A stretch of DNA of 64,000 nt from Acinetobacter phage 133: the sequence record HM114315.1, one strand, 5' to 3'. Position numbers and translations under genes: made by a program. Below, piece by piece: positions 1,687 to 42,730 of this stretch (positions are counted from its first letter, which is position 1; every line of letters starts with the position of its first letter). A model generated the notes under the pieces. That model saw only the letters and a program-made list of their open reading frames with translations. It did not search any database and had not been told where the DNA came from.

Positions 1687-3240
1687 ATGAATTTTCCAGA
1701 TTTAAATTCTTTAAAATTTTGGAAACGTGAAGACGAGCGTATATTCAAACAAGAAATGTCCGATAAAATTGAATCGGTCGCTCCACCTGATCGGGATGAT
1801 GGCGCAACAGAAATTGAAGTGTCTGCCCACGGTGGTATGCAACAATCGTTATTATCCTCACAAGAAATTCAGGCACGAAACACAAAAGATTTAATCAATC
1901 AATACCGTGGATTATTGTCTAACTATGAAGTGGACAATGCTGTACAAGAAATTGTTAACGACGCGATTGTTTATGAAGACCATCATGACGTGGTTCGGCT
2001 AATTTTAGATGACACTGATTTTTCAGAGTCAACTAGAACTCGAATTACAGAAGAATTTGATGTCGTATTAAACACCTTGTCATTTCAACGTAAAGGTGCC
2101 GAACATTTTAAACGATGGTACGTTGATTCTCGAATTTATTTTCATAAAATTATTAACCCTGATAAGCCCAAAGAAGGCATTATCGAAATGCGACGTTTGG
2201 ACCCACGCCGAACTCAGTTCATACGTGAACTAATGGTAGATGATTCCCAAGGGGTTCGTGTTGTCAAAGGGTATCGAGATTATTTTTTATATCAAACTGG
2301 CAGCGAAACATATAACGCAGGTGGCTTTTATTATGGGCCAGGTTCATTGGTAAAAATCCCAGCTTCTGCTGTTACATATGCACACTCTGGCTTGCAAGAC
2401 GGATGTGGTGATAATATTGTGGGTTATCTACATCGTGCTGTAAAGCCGGCTAACCAACTGAAACTGATGGAAGACGCTTTAGTCATTTATCGTATCACCC
2501 GTGCTCCAGACCGTCGAGTTTTTTATATTGACACTGGTCAAATGGCATCGCGTAAAGCAACTCAGTTCATGACATCAATTATGAACTCGATGAAAAATCG
2601 AGTTACTTATGATGTTGCCACAGGCCAAGTTAAAAACAAACAAAATAATATTACTTTAACTGAAGATATTTGGTTACAACGTCGCGATGGTAAAAATGTT
2701 ACTGAAGTTGATACTCTTCCTTCATTATCAGGAATGTCTGATATGGATGATGTGCGTTATTTCAGAAAGGCTTTTTACATGGCACTCCGTGTACCGTTAT
2801 CACGCATCCCAGATGAACAAAATGGTGGGGTGTTAGTTGACAACGGCAGTCAAGTTACTCGTGATGAGCTCGGATTTAGTAAATTTATTCGTACATTGCA
2901 ACATAACTTTGGTCCAGTCTTACTTGATCCATTGCGAGCGAATCTTTTGCTTAAGGGTCTTGTTAGTGAAGAAGAGTGGGACCGTAACATAAATAATATT
3001 AAGTTAAACTTCCACCGTGACTCGTATTTTACCGAGATGAAAGAGCTTGAAATTGCAGAACGTCGTGCCGCAATTGTTGACCAATTAGTGCCGATTACAG
3101 GCAAATATTATTCTAATGAACGAATTATGAAAGAGTATCTTCATATGAGTGAAGAGGATATTAAACAAGAGCGCGAGCTGATCAAGGCGGAAATGAAAGA
3201 CCCAATCTATAAAGAAGAGGATGACGACCAAAATGAATAG
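1687..3240 (+). CDS. 20: Portal vertex protein gp20
   Basis: Strong match to T4 gp20 (SFQRKG.EHF.RWYVDSRI, GYLHRAVKPANQLKL, YRITRAPDRRV, LRVPLSRIP). ATG preceded by GGAGGA. Confidence 0.9.
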   Translation: MNFPDLNSLKFWKREDERIFKQEMSDKIESVAPPDRDDGATEIEVSAHGGMQQSLLSSQEIQARNTKDLINQYRGLLSNYEVDNAVQEIVNDAIVYEDHHDVVRLILDDTDFSESTRTRITEEFDVVLNTLSFQRKGAEHFKRWYVDSRIYFHKIINPDKPKEGIIEMRRLDPRRTQFIRELMVDDSQGVRVVKGYRDYFLYQTGSETYNAGGFYYGPGSLVKIPASAVTYAHSGLQDGCGDNIVGYLHRAVKPANQLKLMEDALVIYRITRAPDRRVFYIDTGQMASRKATQFMTSIMNSMKNRVTYDVATGQVKNKQNNITLTEDIWLQRRDGKNVTEVDTLPSLSGMSDMDDVRYFRKAFYMALRVPLSRIPDEQNGGVLVDNGSQVTRDELGFSKFIRTLQHNFGPVLLDPLRANLLLKGLVSEEEWDRNINNIKLNFHRDSYFTEMKELEIAERRAAIVDQLVPITGKYYSNERIMKEYLHMSEEDIKQERELIKAEMKDPIYKEEDDDQNE

Positions 3241-9950: not shown

Positions 9951-10586
9951 TTAGTTTAATATGTGGAAACGTGAATTACGTGATTCACGGATTTGTACGG
10001 TTTTTTGTCGTTTGATGTAATATAACAAACTGTATAATACTCGACGATCGACTTCGCGAGCGATATGAATTTTGGATTTCCAGTCTTTATTCTGCTCAAT
10101 AAAATCCCAAATCCAATATGGGATATTTGTGTAACCTGGTGCAGGGCCCATTAGACTTAGCGTTGGATAGAAACCTGGAGGTAGTTCTTCTGATTCGATC
10201 ACAGGTTGATCCTGAATCGCTTCTGTTGGAGTTTCTTCAACAGGGACTGGTGTTTCTATAGGCTGTGTAACTTCGTCTGATACAGGATCAATGGTGGCTT
10301 CCGGAGTTTCTTCAACAACAGGTTCGACTTTAGGTTCTGCTGCCTGAACTACGATACGCCCATCTTCCTGTGCTAACAATTCGGACATTGTTAGGCCTTC
10401 TGTTTCTTCAGGCATTGGCTCATTATGTAGGGCTTTAATTTCAGCAGTGAATTTTTCAATCATCGCCTCAATAGTCAGGTTCTTTTTAAGCTCAATTCCG
10501 AACCCTTGTGCATATTCTACAAAGGCCTCTTTGGCTTCACGTTTTGGTAACTCAAGTAAAGAGTCGATATATTCTTTATCAATCAT
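9951..10586 (-). CDS. Hypothetical late protein with an acidic Pro/Glu-rich linker, in the hoc/inh position
   Basis: 211 aa ORF with RBS AGGAGA, and a minus-strand TATAAATA 20 nt upstream. No confident homology from inspection. Confidence 0.5.
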   Translation of the reverse strand: MIDKEYIDSLLELPKREAKEAFVEYAQGFGIELKKNLTIEAMIEKFTAEIKALHNEPMPEETEGLTMSELLAQEDGRIVVQAAEPKVEPVVEETPEATIDPVSDEVTQPIETPVPVEETPTEAIQDQPVIESEELPPGFYPTLSLMGPAPGYTNIPYWIWDFIEQNKDWKSKIHIAREVDRRVLYSLLYYIKRQKTVQIRESRNSRFHILN

Positions 10587-36102: not shown

Positions 36103-36445
36103 TGATCTTACTCGCTATGTTATTGAATGCTTGATTCAAGATTAATTCCGCTTCCTTGTTATTGGTCTTTTCCACCACCTTCACGACTTCTTTAATTTGC
36201 ACCGTGTTATTGGTATGCTCAATACGATTGGATTGCATTTCAACTTGGACTCGCTGAATATCAGCAAGCTGAGATTGAATCTTGACGACATTTTCATTTG
36301 CCACTTGTACATTGACATTCATTTCTTTAAGCTTGGTCTCCAGGATATCATTTCGATAGTCCTGGATCTTCCACATACCGCCTAAAATAAGAAATGCAAC
36401 GGCCACAATGATGGCAATAATTGCACTAGGTTTTAATTGGATCAC
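36092..36445 (-). CDS. Inner-membrane spanin (i-spanin, Rz-like)
   Basis: N-terminal transmembrane helix plus coiled coil. GTG start with a strong GGAGGA RBS. Confidence 0.6.
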   Translation of the reverse strand: MIQLKPSAIIAIIVAVAFLILGGMWKIQDYRNDILETKLKEMNVNVQVANENVVKIQSQLADIQRVQVEMQSNRIEHTNNTVQIKEVVKVVEKTNNKEAELILNQAFNNIASKINES

Positions 36446-37391
36446 GATACTCCTCCGGGATAAACAGATCTACATTTTTAGTGAATACTTCACTGATGGA
36501 TTCTACTAATGCTTCGGTTGTAATCATTCCATTGAATAAGGACATGAACAGACCAAACAAGTACGGTTTGTTCAATTTAGTTAATTCCGTTTGAGACCCG
36601 ATAGCATAATCTTTACGTGACAAACCGTGGTATTTTTTGTGTAATTCACGGATAACTTTTAAACTGTCCATTAAAAAGTCCAGGAATGTCTTCTCAAACT
36701 TATTGATTTTAGTTAATGAATATTCATCACTGAACAGAGCGCGTACATCATCTAGGACCCCTAGTCGGGCCAACATCATCAGAGCCTTGTTATTGTTCAG
36801 TGACGCTTTAACATTATGCAGTTCACTATACCAATCAGTTTTCACTTTGAAGAACAACCCAGATTGCATTTTGAACACGTAGCCTTCAATGTTTTGCATT
36901 TGATACACGCCTTCTACAAATGCGGATGGATCTTGTCCTTCTTCAATAACATAACCTGGCACTAGGTACTTGCGCAGTACAGGATCCGACTTAAGTTCGT
37001 TGTACGGAACGTAATTACCAGATTCATTTTCACGCACATTTAACAAAATCATGCGGGTATCTTGATAGCCCAATACGACTCGATTATGTGGTGCAACGTA
37101 TTCAAAGTTACATGTGAAACCATCTTCTGCTAATTCTTGTACGCGAAAACGTAGTGCTTCATGGGACCAATCATCCATATATTGGTTCGCCCAGATTGCC
37201 TGATCACTATGGATTGAGGCTTTTGATTTCATGCGCACTCGACCATTGTCCAAATACGTAGAGACTAAAGACCCATCCGCTTTGTCCATGAAGAATTCAA
37301 TCTCATTCATGTCCGGTAATATAACGTCTTTAAAGTTTGAATATAGCGAGTCTAGTCCATGTTCAATCACATAGTCATCAAATTTTGCCAT
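36426..37391 (-). CDS. rnlA: RNA ligase 1 (RnlA), C-terminal two-thirds including the KxDG nucleotidyltransferase motif
   Basis: Aligns with T4 Rnl1 from about residue 85 onward (MDKADGSLVSTYLDNG, AEDGFT.NFE.VAP.NR.VL.YQ, ILLNVRENE.G.Y, NIEGYV, FIPEEY). Own ATG with GGAGAAA RBS. Confidence 0.85.
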   Translation of the reverse strand: MAKFDDYVIEHGLDSLYSNFKDVILPDMNEIEFFMDKADGSLVSTYLDNGRVRMKSKASIHSDQAIWANQYMDDWSHEALRFRVQELAEDGFTCNFEYVAPHNRVVLGYQDTRMILLNVRENESGNYVPYNELKSDPVLRKYLVPGYVIEEGQDPSAFVEGVYQMQNIEGYVFKMQSGLFFKVKTDWYSELHNVKASLNNNKALMMLARLGVLDDVRALFSDEYSLTKINKFEKTFLDFLMDSLKVIRELHKKYHGLSRKDYAIGSQTELTKLNKPYLFGLFMSLFNGMITTEALVESISEVFTKNVDLFIPEEYRDPIKT

Positions 37392-38199
37392 GATATTTCT
37401 CCAATAATTCAGGTATTGACATTTCAGATTTGCCGTGTTTGGCTAAATTGTCGCGCCATGGTATAAATCTTAAATTATGAATACACGCTATTATTTCGGG
37501 GTGTATTCCATTATTAAACCCATCTATGATGGACACGATATGATCCAAGTGATAAGCATTATGATTTCTGCAATGATTATCACGCCGCTCATAAAATGGT
37601 AATTGTGTCAAATCATTTTTATTTGATAACAGTCTAACATCCTTTTGATAACGAGCGTACGATTTTTTATCAAATGATATATGACCATTATCAATACGTC
37701 GTTGTCGGCCATTTCCCAACCACCCAGTATTGACGTTATCACCATACCTAGCACGTATTGTTTTTATGGCTTTTTGCCTGGATTTTGTATAGTCCACTTT
37801 TGATCTGTCACGGGTGGACATTTCGATTGATCGTTTTAAACGTTCAGTTTGTTTCTGTGCAATGTATTCAACGCCGTATTTTTTAACGTTGGTGGCCTTT
37901 ACTTGATTTTGCCAATTGGCGCAACTTGCTCGACATTTAGGAGAGCAATATAAATGGTAGCCCTTTTTAAACCGTTCAAACGTAACTTCATGTCCACAAT
38001 AACAAATTGGACATGAAGTTACGTTATTATTAATGCAATATATAGCCTCAGTTATTGATTTTGACCAAGGACAAAACGACATAAGGTCATCAATAGCAGA
38101 TTGTAAATTATGCTTAACTATATAATCGGGTTTATAAACATATGTATTAATTGAACCCGACTTATTAAGTAAACGAGGGTGGATTTTTGGCTTTATCAT
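37378..38199 (-). mobile_element. Free-standing HNH homing endonuclease gene inserted within rnlA
   Basis: HNH motif HLDHIVSIIDGFNNGIHPEIIACIHNLRFIPWRDN. Zinc-finger-like N-terminus (CPICYCGHE...C). Overlaps both rnlA halves and lies in a different frame. Confidence 0.8.
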
Positions 38200-38503
38200 A
38201 AACTTCCTGGCTTAGTAATCCTTGTGATATTAAAATTTGTGCGAATTCATCAGGTGTTTTTAATTCGGTTAAATTAAAAAATTTGGACATGGGACGGGTC
38301 AAAATTTCAGTTGCAACCCCATCAACCATCTTGAACATAATACCTCGGCATTCAAGTGCAGAAGGTTTCAGCCAATCCGTATATGAAACGAAGTGATAAT
38401 TGAAAATACGGACATTCATGCCCATTGCAGTAGTTTGGTCTTTGAAATAGAACAAGTTTTGATCATCTGCGCATAACGCCATTAATTCATCATAAATTTG
38501 CAT
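38165..38503 (-). CDS. rnlA: RNA ligase 1 (RnlA), N-terminal fragment
   Basis: Aligns with T4 Rnl1 residues 1 to about 85 (MQ.....LMELC, RIF.Y.F.SY.DWL.P.ALECRGIMF, RPM.KFFNL). Then a ~30 aa non-homologous tail and a stop codon. Confidence 0.8.
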   Translation of the reverse strand: MQIYDELMALCADDQNLFYFKDQTTAMGMNVRIFNYHFVSYTDWLKPSALECRGIMFKMVDGVATEILTRPMSKFFNLTELKTPDEFAQILISQGLLSQEVYDKAKNPPSFT

Positions 38504-38521
38504 AATTTGCTCCTGGATTTG

Positions 38522-38553: not shown

Positions 38554-38571
38554 AGGGTCCCGAAGGACCCT
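38550..38571 (-). terminator. Terminator with UUCG tetraloop after the NrdH-like gene
   Basis: GGGTCCCGAAGGACCC with an A-run. Confidence 0.65.
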
Positions 38572-38575
38572 AACT

Positions 38576-38794
38576 TTATTTCAAGAATTTACGCAGTTCA
38601 ATGTAGCCGCCAATCAATGTATCCCCATATGTAATCACAGGAAATGCTGCTCGACCGGGTGCGATCTTTTGCAAGTCGTCTTTAGTGAAGTCTTCGCCGA
38701 TGGTTTTAATTTCATGAGCAATCTGTTTAATTTCCAAATATTTTTTAGCTTGTAGGCATTGGCCACAATTAGGTGCGCTGTATACAGTAAACAT
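38576..38794 (-). CDS. NrdH/glutaredoxin-like redoxin
   Basis: 72 aa with CGQC near the N-terminus and a C-terminal GG.IGG motif, in the T4 nrdC-like position next to nrdB. Confidence 0.65.
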   Translation of the reverse strand: MFTVYSAPNCGQCLQAKKYLEIKQIAHEIKTIGEDFTKDDLQKIAPGRAAFPVITYGDTLIGGYIELRKFLK

Positions 38795-38796
38795 GA

Positions 38797-39945
38797 TTAT
38801 CCTTTTTTCGGTAAATATTTTTCGCGGAATTGGGCAATAATATTGTCATCCACGTCTTGATCGATTTGAGAAATTAAGTATGAACTCAATTCTGCTTCTT
38901 GTTTTGCCACCTGAACCGATGACGCCATTAGATATTTATTTACCCATGGCAACGGATGACGTTTAGGTCGTTCAATTGGGCAATTAAGGCCAACATTTTT
39001 CATCGCTGGAACTAATTGATAATCAATGAACTCGTGTACCAAATCAGTAGTTAATCCATCAGGGTGACCATTACGATAAACGTATGTTGCCCATGCACGT
39101 TCTTGTGCGCGTACTTCAAGGAACATTGCTTCAGCTTCTTCTTTACAGTCAAGAGCAATTTCGCGCCATTCTGTACCGTCGATGCCTTTGTTCATTTGTT
39201 GAAGAATATAACGCGTGCCTTGATGATGTAGATTTTCGTCACGTGCAATGAATTGCATGATCTTCATATTACCTTCCATGATCTTCATATTTTCGAAGAA
39301 ATTCCAGGTAGAAATGAATGACACATAGAAACGAATTGCTTCCAAAGCATTAATCGCATGTAAACATAAGTAAAGCGCTTTTTTAACTTCACGCAATTGC
39401 CCAGGCGTTGCAACACCGCGGATTTTGTCGGCCTGGTATAAAATGATTAATTTATGCAATAAATCATATCGTTCACAAATACTCGTTGCACGAGCCATAA
39501 TTTCTTTATTGGCCAATACACCATCAAAGATTTTTGAAGGATCCGAATATAAGTTGCGGATAATATGGGTGTAAGAACGAGAGTGAATTGTCTCAGAGAA
39601 AGTCCAAGTCATAATCCAGGTTTCTAACGCCACATCAGAGCAAATTGAAGCTAGAACAATCGCCGGTGCTCGACCCTGCACAGAGTCCATCAGAATTTGG
39701 TAACCCAGGTTGTCAGTGAAAATTGTCTGAAGATGTCCACGATTGGTTTCCCAGAGCTTATCAAACTGTGCTTTGTCAGTCGTTAGATTGACTTCCTCAG
39801 GACGCCAAAAAAACGAAAGTTGCTTAGTAGTTAGTTCTTCAAATTTTTCGTGTTTGACAATTTCATACCGAGCAACACCAGTGTCATCACCAAAGAACAT
39901 GGGTTGATCAATATTAAATTCGTTTTGATTAAAAATAGTTTGCAT
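38797..39945 (-). CDS. nrdB: Ribonucleotide reductase class Ia beta subunit; continuous, no intron
   Basis: R2 hallmarks (FSETIHSRSYTHI, FYVSF...EGNMKI..FIARDENLH). 382 aa. Confidence 0.9.
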   Translation of the reverse strand: MQTIFNQNEFNIDQPMFFGDDTGVARYEIVKHEKFEELTTKQLSFFWRPEEVNLTTDKAQFDKLWETNRGHLQTIFTDNLGYQILMDSVQGRAPAIVLASICSDVALETWIMTWTFSETIHSRSYTHIIRNLYSDPSKIFDGVLANKEIMARATSICERYDLLHKLIILYQADKIRGVATPGQLREVKKALYLCLHAINALEAIRFYVSFISTWNFFENMKIMEGNMKIMQFIARDENLHHQGTRYILQQMNKGIDGTEWREIALDCKEEAEAMFLEVRAQERAWATYVYRNGHPDGLTTDLVHEFIDYQLVPAMKNVGLNCPIERPKRHPLPWVNKYLMASSVQVAKQEAELSSYLISQIDQDVDDNIIAQFREKYLPKKG

Positions 39946-39984
39946 ATTATTCCTTGTGGGGCCGGCTAAGACCCCATTTTATCG

Positions 39985-42396
39985 TTAAATTGAACAACCT
40001 TCACATGCCGCTTCAGAAGAATCATCTGCGCCTGAACCATCATCTGTATTGTGATAATACATGTTCTTATTTCCGTAATAGAAACAGAACAACATATCAT
40101 CCATCATTACTGACATTGGGACTTTGCCATTGGAATAACTAGCTGGCACATAATACGTATTCAAGGAAATTGACTGGTCCCAGAATTTTTGCATAATTGC
40201 CATTTTGGTCAGGTATCCTTTATTGCCGAACTTAGCAGCAGATTCCCATGCAAATTCATAGAACACACTGTTAATATCGTAATTCGGAACAATCTGGTTA
40301 AATGACCCATCTTTTGATTGCTTATACGAAACAGGTTTTAATGCGCGTTCAACACCATTAGTCGAATTTGATACTTGGCTTGATGTTTCGCATGGCATTT
40401 GGGCTGACAGTGTTACGTTACGCATACCAAACTTAATCAGGCGAGCACGAGTGTCTTCCCAATCCATTACATAATTTGGTGCAACCAAGTCGTCTACATT
40501 TTTACAATACCAATCGATCGGAAGTAGTCCTTGACCATATTTGGTTTTGTACAACATTGGGCTTGGGCCTTTTTCTTCAGCCAAGTCAATTGACGCATTA
40601 ACCAATGCGTATTGTAAACGTTCAAACAACTCATGCGATGTTTCATGGTCGTCTTCATAAGAAGAAGCATTGGCCGCAAGCCATCCAGCATAGTTTGTAA
40701 CCCCAATACCTAAAGAACGATATTCTTTGGCCTTCAATGCGTTTTGGTGCGGGTAGTCTTGGTAATCCAAAAGATTATCCAAAGCACGAACCATCACTTT
40801 GCCGATACGATTTACTTCGTCTTGATTCTTCCAATCAAAATTATCAAGCACCCACGCCGACAGTGTACATAATGCAATTTCACCTAAGTCTTCCTGGACA
40901 TTTAAAGAAATTTCCCCTTCTTTTAAATCTTCAACACGACCAATGCGTCGGAATTCATTTTCAACAGTAGGCAACACTGCTTTTTTGGTACCATATTTTT
41001 CAACAAATGCAATCAGTGATCCTTCCGGAACCGCAATAATCCGGTCTGCATAAGTAGCCAATGGCATTGTGTGTAGTGCGATTTCCGCACATAGATTTGA
41101 CATTTTAACTGGAGCGATTGAACGAATCCACGGCCCAAAGTTATTTGCATTGTCAACATGTTGTGGGTAGATACGAGCAGTATTTGCGCGTTCTGGCATA
41201 AACAGACTTTGGAAATATTCTGTTGCTTTGATGCGTTTTTTACGTACTGCTGGGGTTGCTTCCAGTTGTTCATACATTGTGCGGAATAATTCTTCATCCG
41301 CATAAAATGCATCGCGTAGTTGACCCCCATTAATTTCGGGGCTGAACAATGTGATGTAATCGTTGTTTAAATAACGTTCAATCATTAAATTGTTCAACTG
41401 AATACCATAGTCCATATGACGGATACGGTTTTCTTCAATGCCTTTGTTGTTCTTGAGAACAATCAGGTTTTCACATTCTAAGTGCCAGCCAGGCCAGTAA
41501 CATGTAGCTGAGCCTTTACGAATACCACCTTGAGAGCATGAATGTACTCCAGTATTAAAATGCTTCCAGAACGGGGTCACGCCAGTATGCTTAACTTCAC
41601 CAGGCCCAATCTTTGAACCTTCTGCACGGATTGCTCCACCTGAAACCCCAATGCCCGCTCGTTTTGACACGTACGAAATAATAGCAGATGATGTTTCATT
41701 AATCGAGTCCAAGCTATCACCAGATTCAATCAGTACACAAGAACTAAATTGACGTGTTGGTGTACGTACTCCGGCCATGATTGGAGTGGGTAGACTGATT
41801 TGCTTTAATGAAACTGCGTCATAAAAGTCTTTAACATATTGTAAACGTTTGCTTTTTTCGTCTTCCTGGTGCAGACACATACCAATAAGCATGAATGTGA
41901 ACTGAGGAGTTTCATGAATTGCACCGTTAGATCGATCTTTTACAAGATACTTATCCTTCATCTGCATGGTGCCAGCGTACGTGAAATTAAAATCACGATC
42001 GTGGTTAATATAACGGTTAAGCTCTTCAAACTCTTCCGCGCTATATTTTTGCACAATTTCAGGGTCATATACGCCCAGGTCTGTTTTTGCTTTAACTTGA
42101 GCTAACAAATGAGGAGGGTCAAATTGTCCATACACCTCTTTACGTAGCCCAAACATTGCCAAATTAGATGCAACAAATTGATAATCGGATTCTTCAACTG
42201 TGATAGAGTCTGCAGCCACTTTGACTATAGCCCGCTGAATTTCCGCGGTAGTCATTTGGTCTTTAATGAAAGGTTGAGCTCGTTCATATAGTTCGTACGG
42301 GTTGATCTGTGTACCTTCACATGACCATTCTAGAACCTGGATAATTTTGGCAGGATCAAAATCCTGGGCGATTCCACTAGATTTAATTACTTTCAT
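39985..42396 (-). CDS. nrdA: Ribonucleotide reductase class Ia alpha subunit
   Basis: R1 motifs (ATP cone, SSCVLIE, NLCAEI, C-terminal CEGCSI redox pair). 803 aa. Confidence 0.9.
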   Translation of the reverse strand: MKVIKSSGIAQDFDPAKIIQVLEWSCEGTQINPYELYERAQPFIKDQMTTAEIQRAIVKVAADSITVEESDYQFVASNLAMFGLRKEVYGQFDPPHLLAQVKAKTDLGVYDPEIVQKYSAEEFEELNRYINHDRDFNFTYAGTMQMKDKYLVKDRSNGAIHETPQFTFMLIGMCLHQEDEKSKRLQYVKDFYDAVSLKQISLPTPIMAGVRTPTRQFSSCVLIESGDSLDSINETSSAIISYVSKRAGIGVSGGAIRAEGSKIGPGEVKHTGVTPFWKHFNTGVHSCSQGGIRKGSATCYWPGWHLECENLIVLKNNKGIEENRIRHMDYGIQLNNLMIERYLNNDYITLFSPEINGGQLRDAFYADEELFRTMYEQLEATPAVRKKRIKATEYFQSLFMPERANTARIYPQHVDNANNFGPWIRSIAPVKMSNLCAEIALHTMPLATYADRIIAVPEGSLIAFVEKYGTKKAVLPTVENEFRRIGRVEDLKEGEISLNVQEDLGEIALCTLSAWVLDNFDWKNQDEVNRIGKVMVRALDNLLDYQDYPHQNALKAKEYRSLGIGVTNYAGWLAANASSYEDDHETSHELFERLQYALVNASIDLAEEKGPSPMLYKTKYGQGLLPIDWYCKNVDDLVAPNYVMDWEDTRARLIKFGMRNVTLSAQMPCETSSQVSNSTNGVERALKPVSYKQSKDGSFNQIVPNYDINSVFYEFAWESAAKFGNKGYLTKMAIMQKFWDQSISLNTYYVPASYSNGKVPMSVMMDDMLFCFYYGNKNMYYHNTDDGSGADDSSEAACEGCSI

Positions 42397-42730
42397 AGAA
42401 TTCCTCTAATATGTTGACTTTATCTTTAAACACGCGATTGACTGTTTTAGCAATTATATCGCCATGGCACTGATGCGGATAGCAAGTGCACCCTAATCTA
42501 GCACCTCGCAATACTTCCAGATGTTCCAGGGTTATTTTCTTATCTTTGATTAATTGTATCCAGTACGAATTAAATAAGGGGATCGCTTGATCCCCATGCT
42601 CTTCCACAGTGTATGGGTTGCCCCATATTGTTCCGCGCTGGATATTTATGTCGTATTCGTGCCTGTACTTGTTGACGACCCGACATACTTCATCGGATCG
42701 CCAAAGTCTAACACTAGGATCTATGGCCAT
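42383..42730 (-). CDS. Hypothetical protein with a DUF4326-like GC.C.P..CHGD motif
   Basis: LGCTCYPHQCHGDII near the C-terminus. Confidence 0.4.
   Translation of the reverse strand: MAIDPSVRLWRSDEVCRVVNKYRHEYDINIQRGTIWGNPYTVEEHGDQAIPLFNSYWIQLIKDKKITLEHLEVLRGARLGCTCYPHQCHGDIIAKTVNRVFKDKVNILEEFYESN

Follow-up and report, generated by a model that had tools for sequence, protein, structure and literature searches.

Acinetobacter phage 133 encodes RNA ligase 1 in two pieces around a candidate homing-endonuclease gene

Three overlapping reading frames at the rnlA locus

The window analyzed is a stretch of 64,000 nucleotides from Acinetobacter phage 133 (HM114315.1), which includes the locus of rnlA, the gene for RNA ligase 1 (Rnl1). 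Three open reading frames (ORFs) follow one another there on the minus strand: an rnlA N-fragment of 112 amino acids (38165..38503), a middle nuclease ORF of 273 amino acids called Acj133p227 (37378..38199), and an rnlA C-fragment of 321 amino acids (36426..37391). The reading frame shifts by +1 from each ORF to the next, and all three frames are used, with intervening stop codons. The N-fragment overlaps the middle ORF by 35 nt, and the middle ORF overlaps the C-fragment by 14 nt. An earlier note on this DNA, written from the letters alone, had called the same three ORFs, and its coordinates and overlaps were reproduced exactly. GenBank annotates the two ligase ORFs as "split RnlA," which the note had missed, and Acj133p227 as a "hypothetical protein." A literature search found no paper on the split rnlA, the overview paper on the phage 133 genome being silent on the split, and megablast of the locus against a phage collection, from which the phage 133 genome itself is apparently absent, returned no match. 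Sequencing error as the cause of the split was rejected because four metagenome assemblies (L004, L005, L169, and L170), made independently from three samples, have the identical ORF structure.

Ribosome binding sites could be read from the sequence ahead of all three ORFs on the minus strand. A Shine-Dalgarno sequence, AGGAG, precedes the N-fragment (38510..38514), and a Shine-Dalgarno-like AGGAAG lies 3 nt before the nuclease ATG, within the region that encodes the tail described below (38203..38208). For the C-fragment, GGAG is found 7 nt before the ATG, within the 3′ end of the nuclease ORF (37399..37402), consistent with the earlier claim that this fragment has a ribosome binding site and start codon of its own. 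With a ribosome binding site and an ATG for each fragment, we infer that the two are translated independently. A terminator-like hairpin (38554..38571, minus strand) separates a glutaredoxin-like gene from the rnlA N-fragment, and between the hairpin and the end of rnlA neither a promoter-like site nor a T4 late-promoter motif was found; therefore, the three ORFs are probably cotranscribed. The locus is also a boundary of genetic exchange, and an nrdAB module swap ends approximately 150 nt upstream.

Alignment to T4 Rnl1 placed residues 2 to 80 of the N-fragment on T4 residues 3 to 81 (4 to 82 in the numbering of PDB 2c5u; E = 3e-23) and residues 26 to 315 of the C-fragment on T4 residues 88 to 374 (E = 1.5e-74), in agreement with the note's statement that the one matches the start of the T4 enzyme and the other resumes after it. 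Likewise, the N-fragment covers positions 5 to 89 and the C-fragment positions 92 to 376 of the 377 positions of PHROG 562. Alignments to T4 Rnl1 and to L002, an intact relative, delimit an N-exon of codons 1 to 78 that encodes the Rnl1 N-terminal subdomain (38270..38503, minus strand), and the same alignments together with Pfam delimit a C-exon that encodes the nucleotidyltransferase core and the Rnl1 C-terminal domain (36426..37313, minus strand), with matches to RNA_lig_T4_1 (E = 3e-15) and T4_Rnl1_C (E = 2e-40). The KxDG motif was located on the C-fragment, where the note had put it, as K37-A-D-G40 (37272..37283). The N-fragment carries ECRG (R53) and SKFF (K74), the equivalents of T4 Arg54 and Lys75, two residues of the N-terminal subdomain that contact ATP and are essential for ligation (PMC6379707). 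The features of the Rnl1 family, namely, the Arg54/Lys75 equivalents, KxDG, and the Rnl1 C-terminal domain, are present and are distributed over two polypeptides. Moreover, the catalytic residues are kept across split lineages. Strong purifying selection acts on each ligase half (dN/dS of 0.01 to 0.02). Relative to intact L002, at a dS of approximately 1 to 1.5, the N-exon has a dN/dS of 0.011 and the C-exon one of 0.023, a comparison of a split with an intact allele that blends time before and after the insertion.

The product of the middle ORF has a Cys-rich motif near its N terminus and a nuclease motif at residues 216 to 254 (37438..37554). The earlier note had called it an HNH nuclease; the ORF is present and HNH-like, but database profiles lend the HNH assignment only weak support. 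Sequence searches of Pfam, NCBIfam, and PDB with Acj133p227 gave no HNH match, and Foldseek against the PDB returned nothing significant. We consider Acj133p227 to be an HNH-like homing-endonuclease candidate rather than simply a hypothetical protein.

The inserted cassette and its tail and leader peptides

The extent of the insertion was defined by DNA comparison with L002, a close relative with an intact RnlA of 382 amino acids that is 94% identical to phage 133 in amino acid sequence and 87 to 88% identical in nucleotide sequence. The N-exon is 88% identical to L002 9848 to 10233, and the C-exon is 87% identical to L002 from 10262 on. Homology ends at position 38271 of the window and picks up at 37313, and L002 positions 10235 to 10261 have no counterpart. 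The inserted cassette, which comprises tail-coding sequence, the nuclease gene, and leader-coding sequence, lies at 37314..38269 on the minus strand and is 956 nt long, replacing 27 nt, or 950 nt long, replacing 21 nt, if its first two codons (T-E) are counted as exon. The insertion site falls in the linker between the Rnl1 N-terminal subdomain and the nucleotidyltransferase core, 11 residues upstream of the adenylylated lysine. This single site and the intact L002 gene bear out the note's proposal that the break lies in front of the nucleotidyltransferase active site of a gene that is uninterrupted in relatives. In a second clade, split L003 and intact L174 are 95% identical in protein sequence, and homology begins at the same Asp codon, which gives the insertion there the same right-hand edge.

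The earlier note had expected alignment with T4 Rnl1 to confirm that no residues are missing; instead, the conserved (R)E-NPFTTDL segment (L002 codons 79 to 87) is absent from phage 133, a loss of 7 to 9 residues. In its place are a nonhomologous tail of 32 to 34 amino acids and a nonhomologous leader of 26 amino acids, both of which went unnoticed in that note. The tail at the C terminus of the N-fragment (TELKTPDEFAQILISQGLLSQEVYDKAKNPPSFT) is encoded with its stop codon at 38165..38269, and the leader at the N terminus of the C-fragment (MAKFDDYVIEHGLDSLYSNFKDVILP) is encoded with its start codon at 37314..37391, each on the minus strand, within the cassette, and without homology to intact RnlA. 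The cassette supplies the tail and a stop codon, the nuclease gene, the downstream ribosome binding site and ATG, and the leader.

Comparison between lineages indicated that both peptides are conserved. A tail motif, L-I-x-x-G-x-L-S-x-[DE]-V-Y-x-[KR]-x-K, is common to phage 133, L006, L168, and L172, and the leader is kept in eight split lineages with invariant M1, D5, V8, L13, L16, and F20. The conserved residues of tail and leader use differing synonymous codons between lineages; serine, for example, is encoded by AGC, TCG, TCA, or TCT. Retention of the motifs despite synonymous codon differences suggests that both peptides are produced and maintained by selection. Part of the tail conservation could stem from the overlapping nuclease start and ribosome binding site rather than from tail function. 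In a predicted model of the C-fragment alone, the leader is disordered (pLDDT below 50). Analysis of charge and amphipathicity revealed no clear pattern in the tail and leader, and their charges are not complementary, unlike the oppositely charged tails of the split ribonucleotide reductase of Aeromonas phage Aeh1.

Distribution and movement of the cassette

Intact and split alleles of rnlA occur side by side, as a cluster at 90% identity contained 12 of the former and 3 of the latter. One metagenome contig, L004, is a mosaic in which the covered part of the cassette (721 nt, 5 mismatches) is 99.3% identical to phage 133 and the downstream exon is 99.3% identical to intact L002 and 87% identical to phage 133. 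The L004 backbone is of the L002 type, and the junction lies 12 to 35 nt from the cassette edge. More broadly, the three-part module is found in at least eight divergent lineages, in which the ligase parts are down to 35 to 47% identical, and the split alleles are polyphyletic among the intact ones rather than forming one clade. The order of N-fragment with tail, nuclease, and leader with C-fragment was seen whole in L006, L168, and L172, with overlaps of 32 to 35 nt and 14 to 19 nt, while L003 and L171 show the part of the module that runs from the nuclease to the leader and C-fragment. With the leader as query, four more clusters of C-fragments were retrieved, 307 to 329 amino acids in length. 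Finally, distant rnlA clades carry the cassette at one and the same codon position. These sequence comparisons indicate that the cassette moves between phage backbones, as expected of a homing endonuclease gene.

None of 160 further loci of the nuclease family in viral and metagenome collections lies next to rnlA. The nuclease family is broad, with the rnlA-specific cassette as a distinct subgroup of it. An 88-amino-acid "RNA ligase" fragment of Klebsiella phage CPRSA was considered as another split and was set aside, as it more likely reflects a frameshift in an otherwise intact gene. The intact RnlA P0056 has a possible cassette footprint, which hints at a full cycle of gain and loss.

Probable gene fission, its alternatives, and related systems

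Very probably, rnlA underwent gene fission by a homing endonuclease, of the kind seen at Aeh1 nrdA/mobE and without RNA or protein splicing, and the tail and leader probably aid reassembly of the enzyme. The earlier note had read the locus as such a fission, and every element of that reading that could be tested computationally held; its analogy to Aeh1 is apt and extends to the insertion-derived tails. During coinfection, the nuclease would cut intact rnlA at or near the sequence encoding the conserved FFNL-ENPFT (putative target on an L002-type gene, …TTCAATTTGCGTGAAAATCCATTTACTACTGATCTTGACATG…), and recombinational repair would then copy the cassette into the cut gene. Alleles that bear the cassette would be immune to the nuclease because the FFNL-ENPFT coding sequence is gone. 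The three overlapping ORFs would be translated off one transcript, possibly with translational coupling, and the polypeptides of 112 and 321 amino acids would associate noncovalently to form a composite active site, with Arg53 and Lys74 contributed by the N-fragment and Lys37 and motifs III to V contributed by the C-fragment. The insertion-derived tails of split Aeh1 NrdA are essential (PMC3045599), and by analogy the conserved tail and leader may be assembly or stabilizing peptides. The low dN/dS ratios and retained catalytic residues of the two halves indirectly suggest that the two-piece ligase may work as an assembled enzyme.

One alternative is that the insertion inactivated rnlA and left one or both fragments as nonfunctional remnants. 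T4 can do without rnlA on most laboratory hosts, and Rnl1 is needed mainly against host anticodon nucleases; therefore, loss of rnlA could be tolerated. In some backbones, the cassette may have arrived recently. Inactivation is nonetheless improbable given that intact ORFs and the catalytic residues of both halves persist in the eight or more split lineages at the ligase identities given above and that the dN/dS ratios of both exons are low. Moreover, the tail and leader are kept, as are the start codon and the geometry of the overlaps, unlike in a decaying pseudogene.

T4 gp63/Rnl1 has two activities that are genetically separable, and the break in phage 133 falls at a subdomain boundary. The split could therefore have separated two functions, such that the C-fragment alone is the ligase or the fragments divide the ligase and tail-fiber-attachment roles of gp63, with no assembly needed in either case. 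We regard this as quite improbable. The equivalents of Arg54 and Lys75, which in T4 contact ATP and are essential for ligation, are on the N-fragment, and therefore the C-fragment alone should be inactive. The constraint on the N-fragment is also very strong, its dN/dS being the lower of the two.

It is very unlikely that the nuclease ORF sits in a group I or other self-splicing intron and that the rnlA ORFs are exons joined in RNA. Phage HNH genes often lie within group I introns, in vibriophage ICP1, genes that HNH genes seem to break up have proved to be spliced (PMC10448857), and an Rfam intron model may miss divergent introns with large ORFs. Searches with Rfam for a group I intron or any plausible family, however, gave no match at an E value of ≤10 in the window, as the earlier note had expected for group I introns, and none at an E value of ≤5 in five related loci. 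The nuclease ORF covers all but 130 to 136 nt of the insertion, and the whole of that remainder encodes the tail and leader peptides, which are kept in the exon frames via synonymous changes. Shuffled sequences fold at least as well as the junction RNAs (z scores of +0.9 and +0.5). Furthermore, joining the homologous parts would drop 7 to 9 conserved residues (ENPFTTDL) that splicing could not restore, and the C-fragment has its own GGAG-N7-ATG, the start codon of which is kept in eight lineages.

Protein trans-splicing by a degenerate or atypical split intein in the tail and leader, with the nuclease gene between its halves, can be dismissed as extremely unlikely: fractured genes in which a free-standing nuclease gene separates the two intein halves have been reported (PMC2677866), and a degenerate-intein origin was raised for the Aeh1 tails by Crona et al. 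(PMC3045599), but the tail and leader total approximately 58 to 60 amino acids versus approximately 130 for a minimal intein, across the split lineages the tail starts with L, H, or V after a conserved Glu and not with Cys or Ser, the leader ends in ILP, GTP, or SEP followed by D, with no His-Asn and no Cys, Ser, or Thr at +1, and no Pfam intein family matched. The earlier note had also excluded an intein, in line with the three frames, the stops between them, and the lack of intein junction residues in every lineage.

The proposed fission of rnlA by a homing endonuclease can be compared with several known systems. At Aeh1 nrdA-a/mobE/nrdA-b (Friedrich et al. 2007 PNAS; Crona et al. 2011 NAR, PMC3045599), a free-standing HNH-type gene, like the HNH-like candidate of phage 133, interrupts a conserved enzyme gene in a T4-like genome, no intron or intein is detectable (for phage 133, from sequence), the endonuclease ORF overlaps the downstream fragment, and both fragments have unique insertion-derived tails. 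The target in phage 133 is RNA ligase 1 rather than ribonucleotide reductase, and its nuclease, unlike MobE, is no recognizable member of the Mob family. Moreover, Aeh1 represents a single, probably ectopic, transposition, whereas the rnlA cassette, tails included, turns up in at least eight lineages, can be present in one allele and absent from a nearly identical one, and has been transferred from one backbone to another. The T4 topoisomerase genes 39/60 and mobA likewise have an HNH (Mob) gene between pieces of what relatives carry as one continuous gene, with tail-like extensions, but gene 60 also needs a 50-nt translational bypass and nothing comparable is found at phage 133 rnlA. Intronless homing by T4 SegF, SegG, and MobE similarly involves presence/absence polymorphism between close relatives, a short coconversion tract next to the inserted gene (12 to 35 nt in L004), and a position within or beside conserved genes; those T4 genes sit between genes, whereas the rnlA cassette sits inside coding sequence and brings new termini for both halves. 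In ICP1, two ORF fragments flank an HNH gene, as they flank the HNH-like gene of phage 133, and genetic exchange has a boundary there too, but the fragments are joined by RNA splicing (PMC10448857), whereas in phage 133 no intron is detectable and the nuclease flanks are conserved coding sequence.

The annotation of Acj133p227 is corrected here to that of a homing-endonuclease candidate. To our knowledge, enzyme genes that are split by a mobile nuclease gene and yet work without splicing are very rare, and the one that has received thorough study is Aeh1 ribonucleotide reductase. Phage 133 rnlA would be a second clear example of this rare "genes-in-pieces" arrangement after phage ribonucleotide reductase. 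As a small, monomeric, and easily assayed enzyme that is widely used as a laboratory reagent, RNA ligase 1 offers a second system for study, with natural split and intact alleles at 94 to 100% protein identity and at least eight divergent versions of the cassette for comparison.

The locus raises the questions of whether a split active site is rebuilt by peptides that a mobile element delivers, how such a cassette homes, and whether the tail/leader pair could be reused as a natural split-protein assembly tag. We also put forward, as a proposal that stands evenly balanced, that the mobile unit is a complete "gene-splitting kit" of tail-coding sequence, stop codon, nuclease gene, ribosome binding site, start codon, and leader, in which the tail and leader are comobilized assembly peptides. 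Insertion into the active-site region would be phenotypically neutral by way of the tail and leader, and therefore the element could home across the rnlA genes of distant phage lineages, including non-T4-like ones. If true, the rnlA cassette would provide the first comparative evidence for the idea, drawn by Crona et al. from the single case of Aeh1, that the antidote travels with the element.

Structure of the split rnlA locus

The rnlA locus of phage 133 contains three ORFs on the minus strand: an N-fragment of 112 aa (38165..38503), a middle ORF of 273 aa (37378..38199), and a C-fragment of 321 aa (36426..37391). The middle ORF overlaps the N-fragment by 35 nt and the C-fragment by 14 nt, and from one ORF to the next the reading frame shifts by +1, a layout that reproduced exactly the coordinates of an earlier note made from the sequence alone. 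The 112-aa protein was 100% identical to the phage 133 NCBI entry "split RnlA RNA ligase 1 and tail fiber attachment catalyst," the 321-aa protein bears the same GenBank label, and the middle ORF is entered as "hypothetical protein Acj133p227"; these matches identify the window as phage 133. The bare split is already known, having been in GenBank annotation since about 2010; a literature search found no paper discussing it, and rnlA was absent from the text of a genome overview covering phage 133. In alignments, T4 Rnl1 residues 3 to 81 corresponded to N-fragment residues 2 to 80 and residues 88 to 374 to C-fragment residues 26 to 315. Likewise, the N-fragment covered positions 5 to 89 and the C-fragment positions 92 to 376 of the 377 in PHROG 562, in agreement with the claim that the former is the start of Rnl1 and the latter the remainder with KxDG. 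Acinetobacter phage Ac42 has the same gene order (nrdA, nrdB, a glutaredoxin-like gene, rnlA, and downstream genes) and an intact rnlA.

A protein search found an intact 382-aa RnlA of 94% identity on a 28.7-kb metagenome contig, L002, and comparison with this uninterrupted relative defined the insertion site. DNA homology to L002 (87 to 88% identity) ended at 38271 and restarted at 37313, such that 956 nt in the window replace 27 nt encoding R-E-N-P-F-T-T-D-L (codons 79 to 87), or 950 nt replace 21 nt if T-E is taken as homologous to R-E. The expectation that no residues would be missing did not hold, as the conserved ENPFT..DL linker was lost. It is replaced by a C-terminal tail of 32 to 34 aa on the N-fragment, TELKTPDEFAQILISQGLLSQEVYDKAKNPPSFT, and an N-terminal leader of 26 aa on the C-fragment, MAKFDDYVIEHGLDSLYSNFKDVILP. 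We define the tail-coding sequence, the middle gene, and the leader-coding sequence as the cassette. The break separates the Rnl1 N-terminal sub-domain from the nucleotidyltransferase core and lies 11 residues upstream of the adenylylated lysine (K37-A-D-G), ahead of the active site as had been proposed. [quoted passage not shown] In phage 133, the N-fragment carries the equivalent residues, R53 and K74, so that the active site is shared out over two chains.

A Shine-Dalgarno sequence precedes each ORF: AGGAG for the N-fragment, AGGAAG for the middle ORF, and GGAG-N7-ATG for the C-fragment, which thus has its own ribosome binding site and start codon, as originally read. A terminator-like hairpin was present upstream of the N-fragment, and a scan of the locus found neither a promoter-like site above background nor a T4 late-promoter motif. 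We infer that a single transcript would carry the three ORFs, and the conserved overlaps may possibly couple their translation. In a related locus, L172, a very stable hairpin (3100-3210; −28.9 kcal/mol, z −5.0) lies over the start of the corresponding middle ORF; neither phage 133 nor another related locus, L006, has it. The hairpin recalls an RNA structure reported to repress translation of mobE in Aeromonas phage Aeh1 (PMC3045599).

Alternative readings of the split

One alternative is that the two halves are joined by splicing, and HNH-interrupted genes of phage ICP1 that were seemingly fragmented proved to be spliced (PMC10448857), a caveat on any computational no-intron reading. Rfam searches of 3 kb around the locus at permissive thresholds, and of five related loci, found no group I intron or other plausible RNA family, as the earlier note had predicted. 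Moreover, the junction RNAs did not fold more stably than shuffled sequences (z +0.9 and +0.5), and the insertion outside the middle ORF was only 130 to 136 nt, all of it conserved and protein coding. On this evidence, an intron is very unlikely.

Another alternative is that rnlA is pseudogenised. Between the window and L002, dN/dS was 0.011 at a dS of 0.95 in the N-exon and 0.023 at a dS of 1.49 in the C-exon, and the N sub-domain R, K, and F residues, KxDG, and motifs III to V were retained in all split lineages. The low dN/dS and retained catalytic residues argue strongly against a pseudogene. A sequencing artefact was rejected, as the same ORF structure recurred in L004, L005, L169, and L170, independent assemblies from three other samples. 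An intein, already discounted in the earlier note, is incompatible with three ORFs in three frames, and a split intein with a tail and leader that total about 58 to 60 aa and lack junction residues.

A candidate split rnlA in Klebsiella phages CPRSA and CPRSB (OM971648 153500-153763; H81, H82) was also rejected, as no inserted gene is present. There, an 88-aa "RNA ligase 1" ORF adjoins a second rnlA CDS, and residues 1 to 72 of this ORF match full-length genes of many Klebsiella phages at 100% identity; by sequence, a frameshift or an assembly error seems a better explanation than a split made by a nuclease.

The putative nuclease cassette and its mobility

The middle ORF had been called an HNH nuclease, and searches of Pfam, NCBIfam, and PDB sequences placed it in no named HNH family, with DUF7487 matched by some of its relatives. 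It did match PHROG 5104 (E 1e-15) and PHROG 3339, "homing endonuclease" (E 5e-7), and the motif YH-L-DH(x21)NL(x7)N-x2-K was invariant. An AlphaFold2 model (mean pLDDT 78, about 90 over the C-terminal 90 residues) contained a strand-strand-helix unit at residues 216 to 253. We conclude that the protein is likely HNH-like. The family is widespread in phage metagenomes, and because none of 160 other loci adjoins rnlA, the rnlA cassette represents a specialised subgroup.

The full module of N-fragment with tail, nuclease, and C-fragment with leader was also found in L006 (overlaps of 35 and 14 nt), L168 (32 and 17 nt), and L172 (35 and 17 nt), the last in a non-T4-like phage context, and in part in L171 and L003; nucleases of the module loci shared 32 to 58% identity. 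Searching exhaustively with a profile of C-fragment residues 1 to 60 added four representative clusters of proteins, 307 to 329 aa long, that start with the leader. Leader residues M1, D5, V8, L13, L16, and F20 were invariant across eight lineages, and four lineages shared the tail motif L-I-x-x-G-x-L-S-x-[DE]-V-Y-x-[KR]-x-K. Because codons at conserved residues varied synonymously between lineages, including Ser AGC to TCN, the tail and leader appear to be translated in the fragment frames and selected as protein, with the caveat that the distal tail overlaps the nuclease start and ribosome binding site, from which extra constraint may come. Separately, P0056, an intact 396-aa RnlA on a 22.6-kb metagenome contig, reads FFNYGE-LNRVNLEELPKAMGTEP-IDLSQIEFF at the insertion site; the segment starts like cassette tails (EHNTNLNTL...) and ends like leaders (...GTP|DL, ...SEP|DL). 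It could be the footprint of imprecise cassette loss or an ancestral long loop that gave rise to both tail and leader.

Among the members of the protein cluster (90% identity) that contains the C-fragment, 12 were intact (382 aa) and 3 were split (321 aa). In L004, the cassette portion (nuclease 3′ part and leader, 721 nt) had just 5 mismatches to the window, the exon and the genes downstream were 99.3% identical to intact L002 and 87% to the window, and identity switched 12 to 35 nt beyond the cassette edge. Judged from sequence, this pattern is the mark that homing with a short co-conversion tract leaves. In L169 and L170, L002-type nrdB and glutaredoxin-like genes were joined to a phage 133-type N-exon and cassette, with a breakpoint 35 to 100 nt upstream of the rnlA ATG. 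Split alleles were dispersed among intact alleles in a ligase-domain distance tree; split P0011 was 95% identical to intact P0016, and the right edge of its cassette fell at the Asp codon that also marks this edge in phage 133. These comparisons indicate that the rnlA cassette is mobile.

The neighboring nrdAB region (38657..42398; nrdA, 39985..42396; nrdB, 38797..39945) also differed between phage 133 and L002: NrdA was only 26% and NrdB only 20% identical, and flanking DNA was 81 to 92% identical. L002 NrdB was 62% identical to Ac42 NrdB. Such divergence between similar flanks implies that the whole nrdAB module was exchanged for a distant version, and the right edge of the swap is only about 150 nt upstream of split rnlA, beside the cassette.

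Comparison with Aeh1

The closest known system is nrdA-a/mobE/nrdA-b of Aeh1, whose two fragments both carry insertion-derived tails that the enzyme needs for activity (PMC3045599). Split rnlA, known here from sequence, has every structural feature of that system, which supports the proposed fission of the nrdA/mobE type, and differs in its target enzyme, a nuclease subgroup without a name, and a tail and leader without charge complementarity. We conclude that split rnlA is, with high probability, genes-in-pieces created by a nuclease cassette. Beyond Aeh1, the rnlA tails form part of the mobile unit, are found again in many lineages, and are subject to selection, and there is perhaps an even chance that tail and leader would serve as assembly peptides for the two halves.
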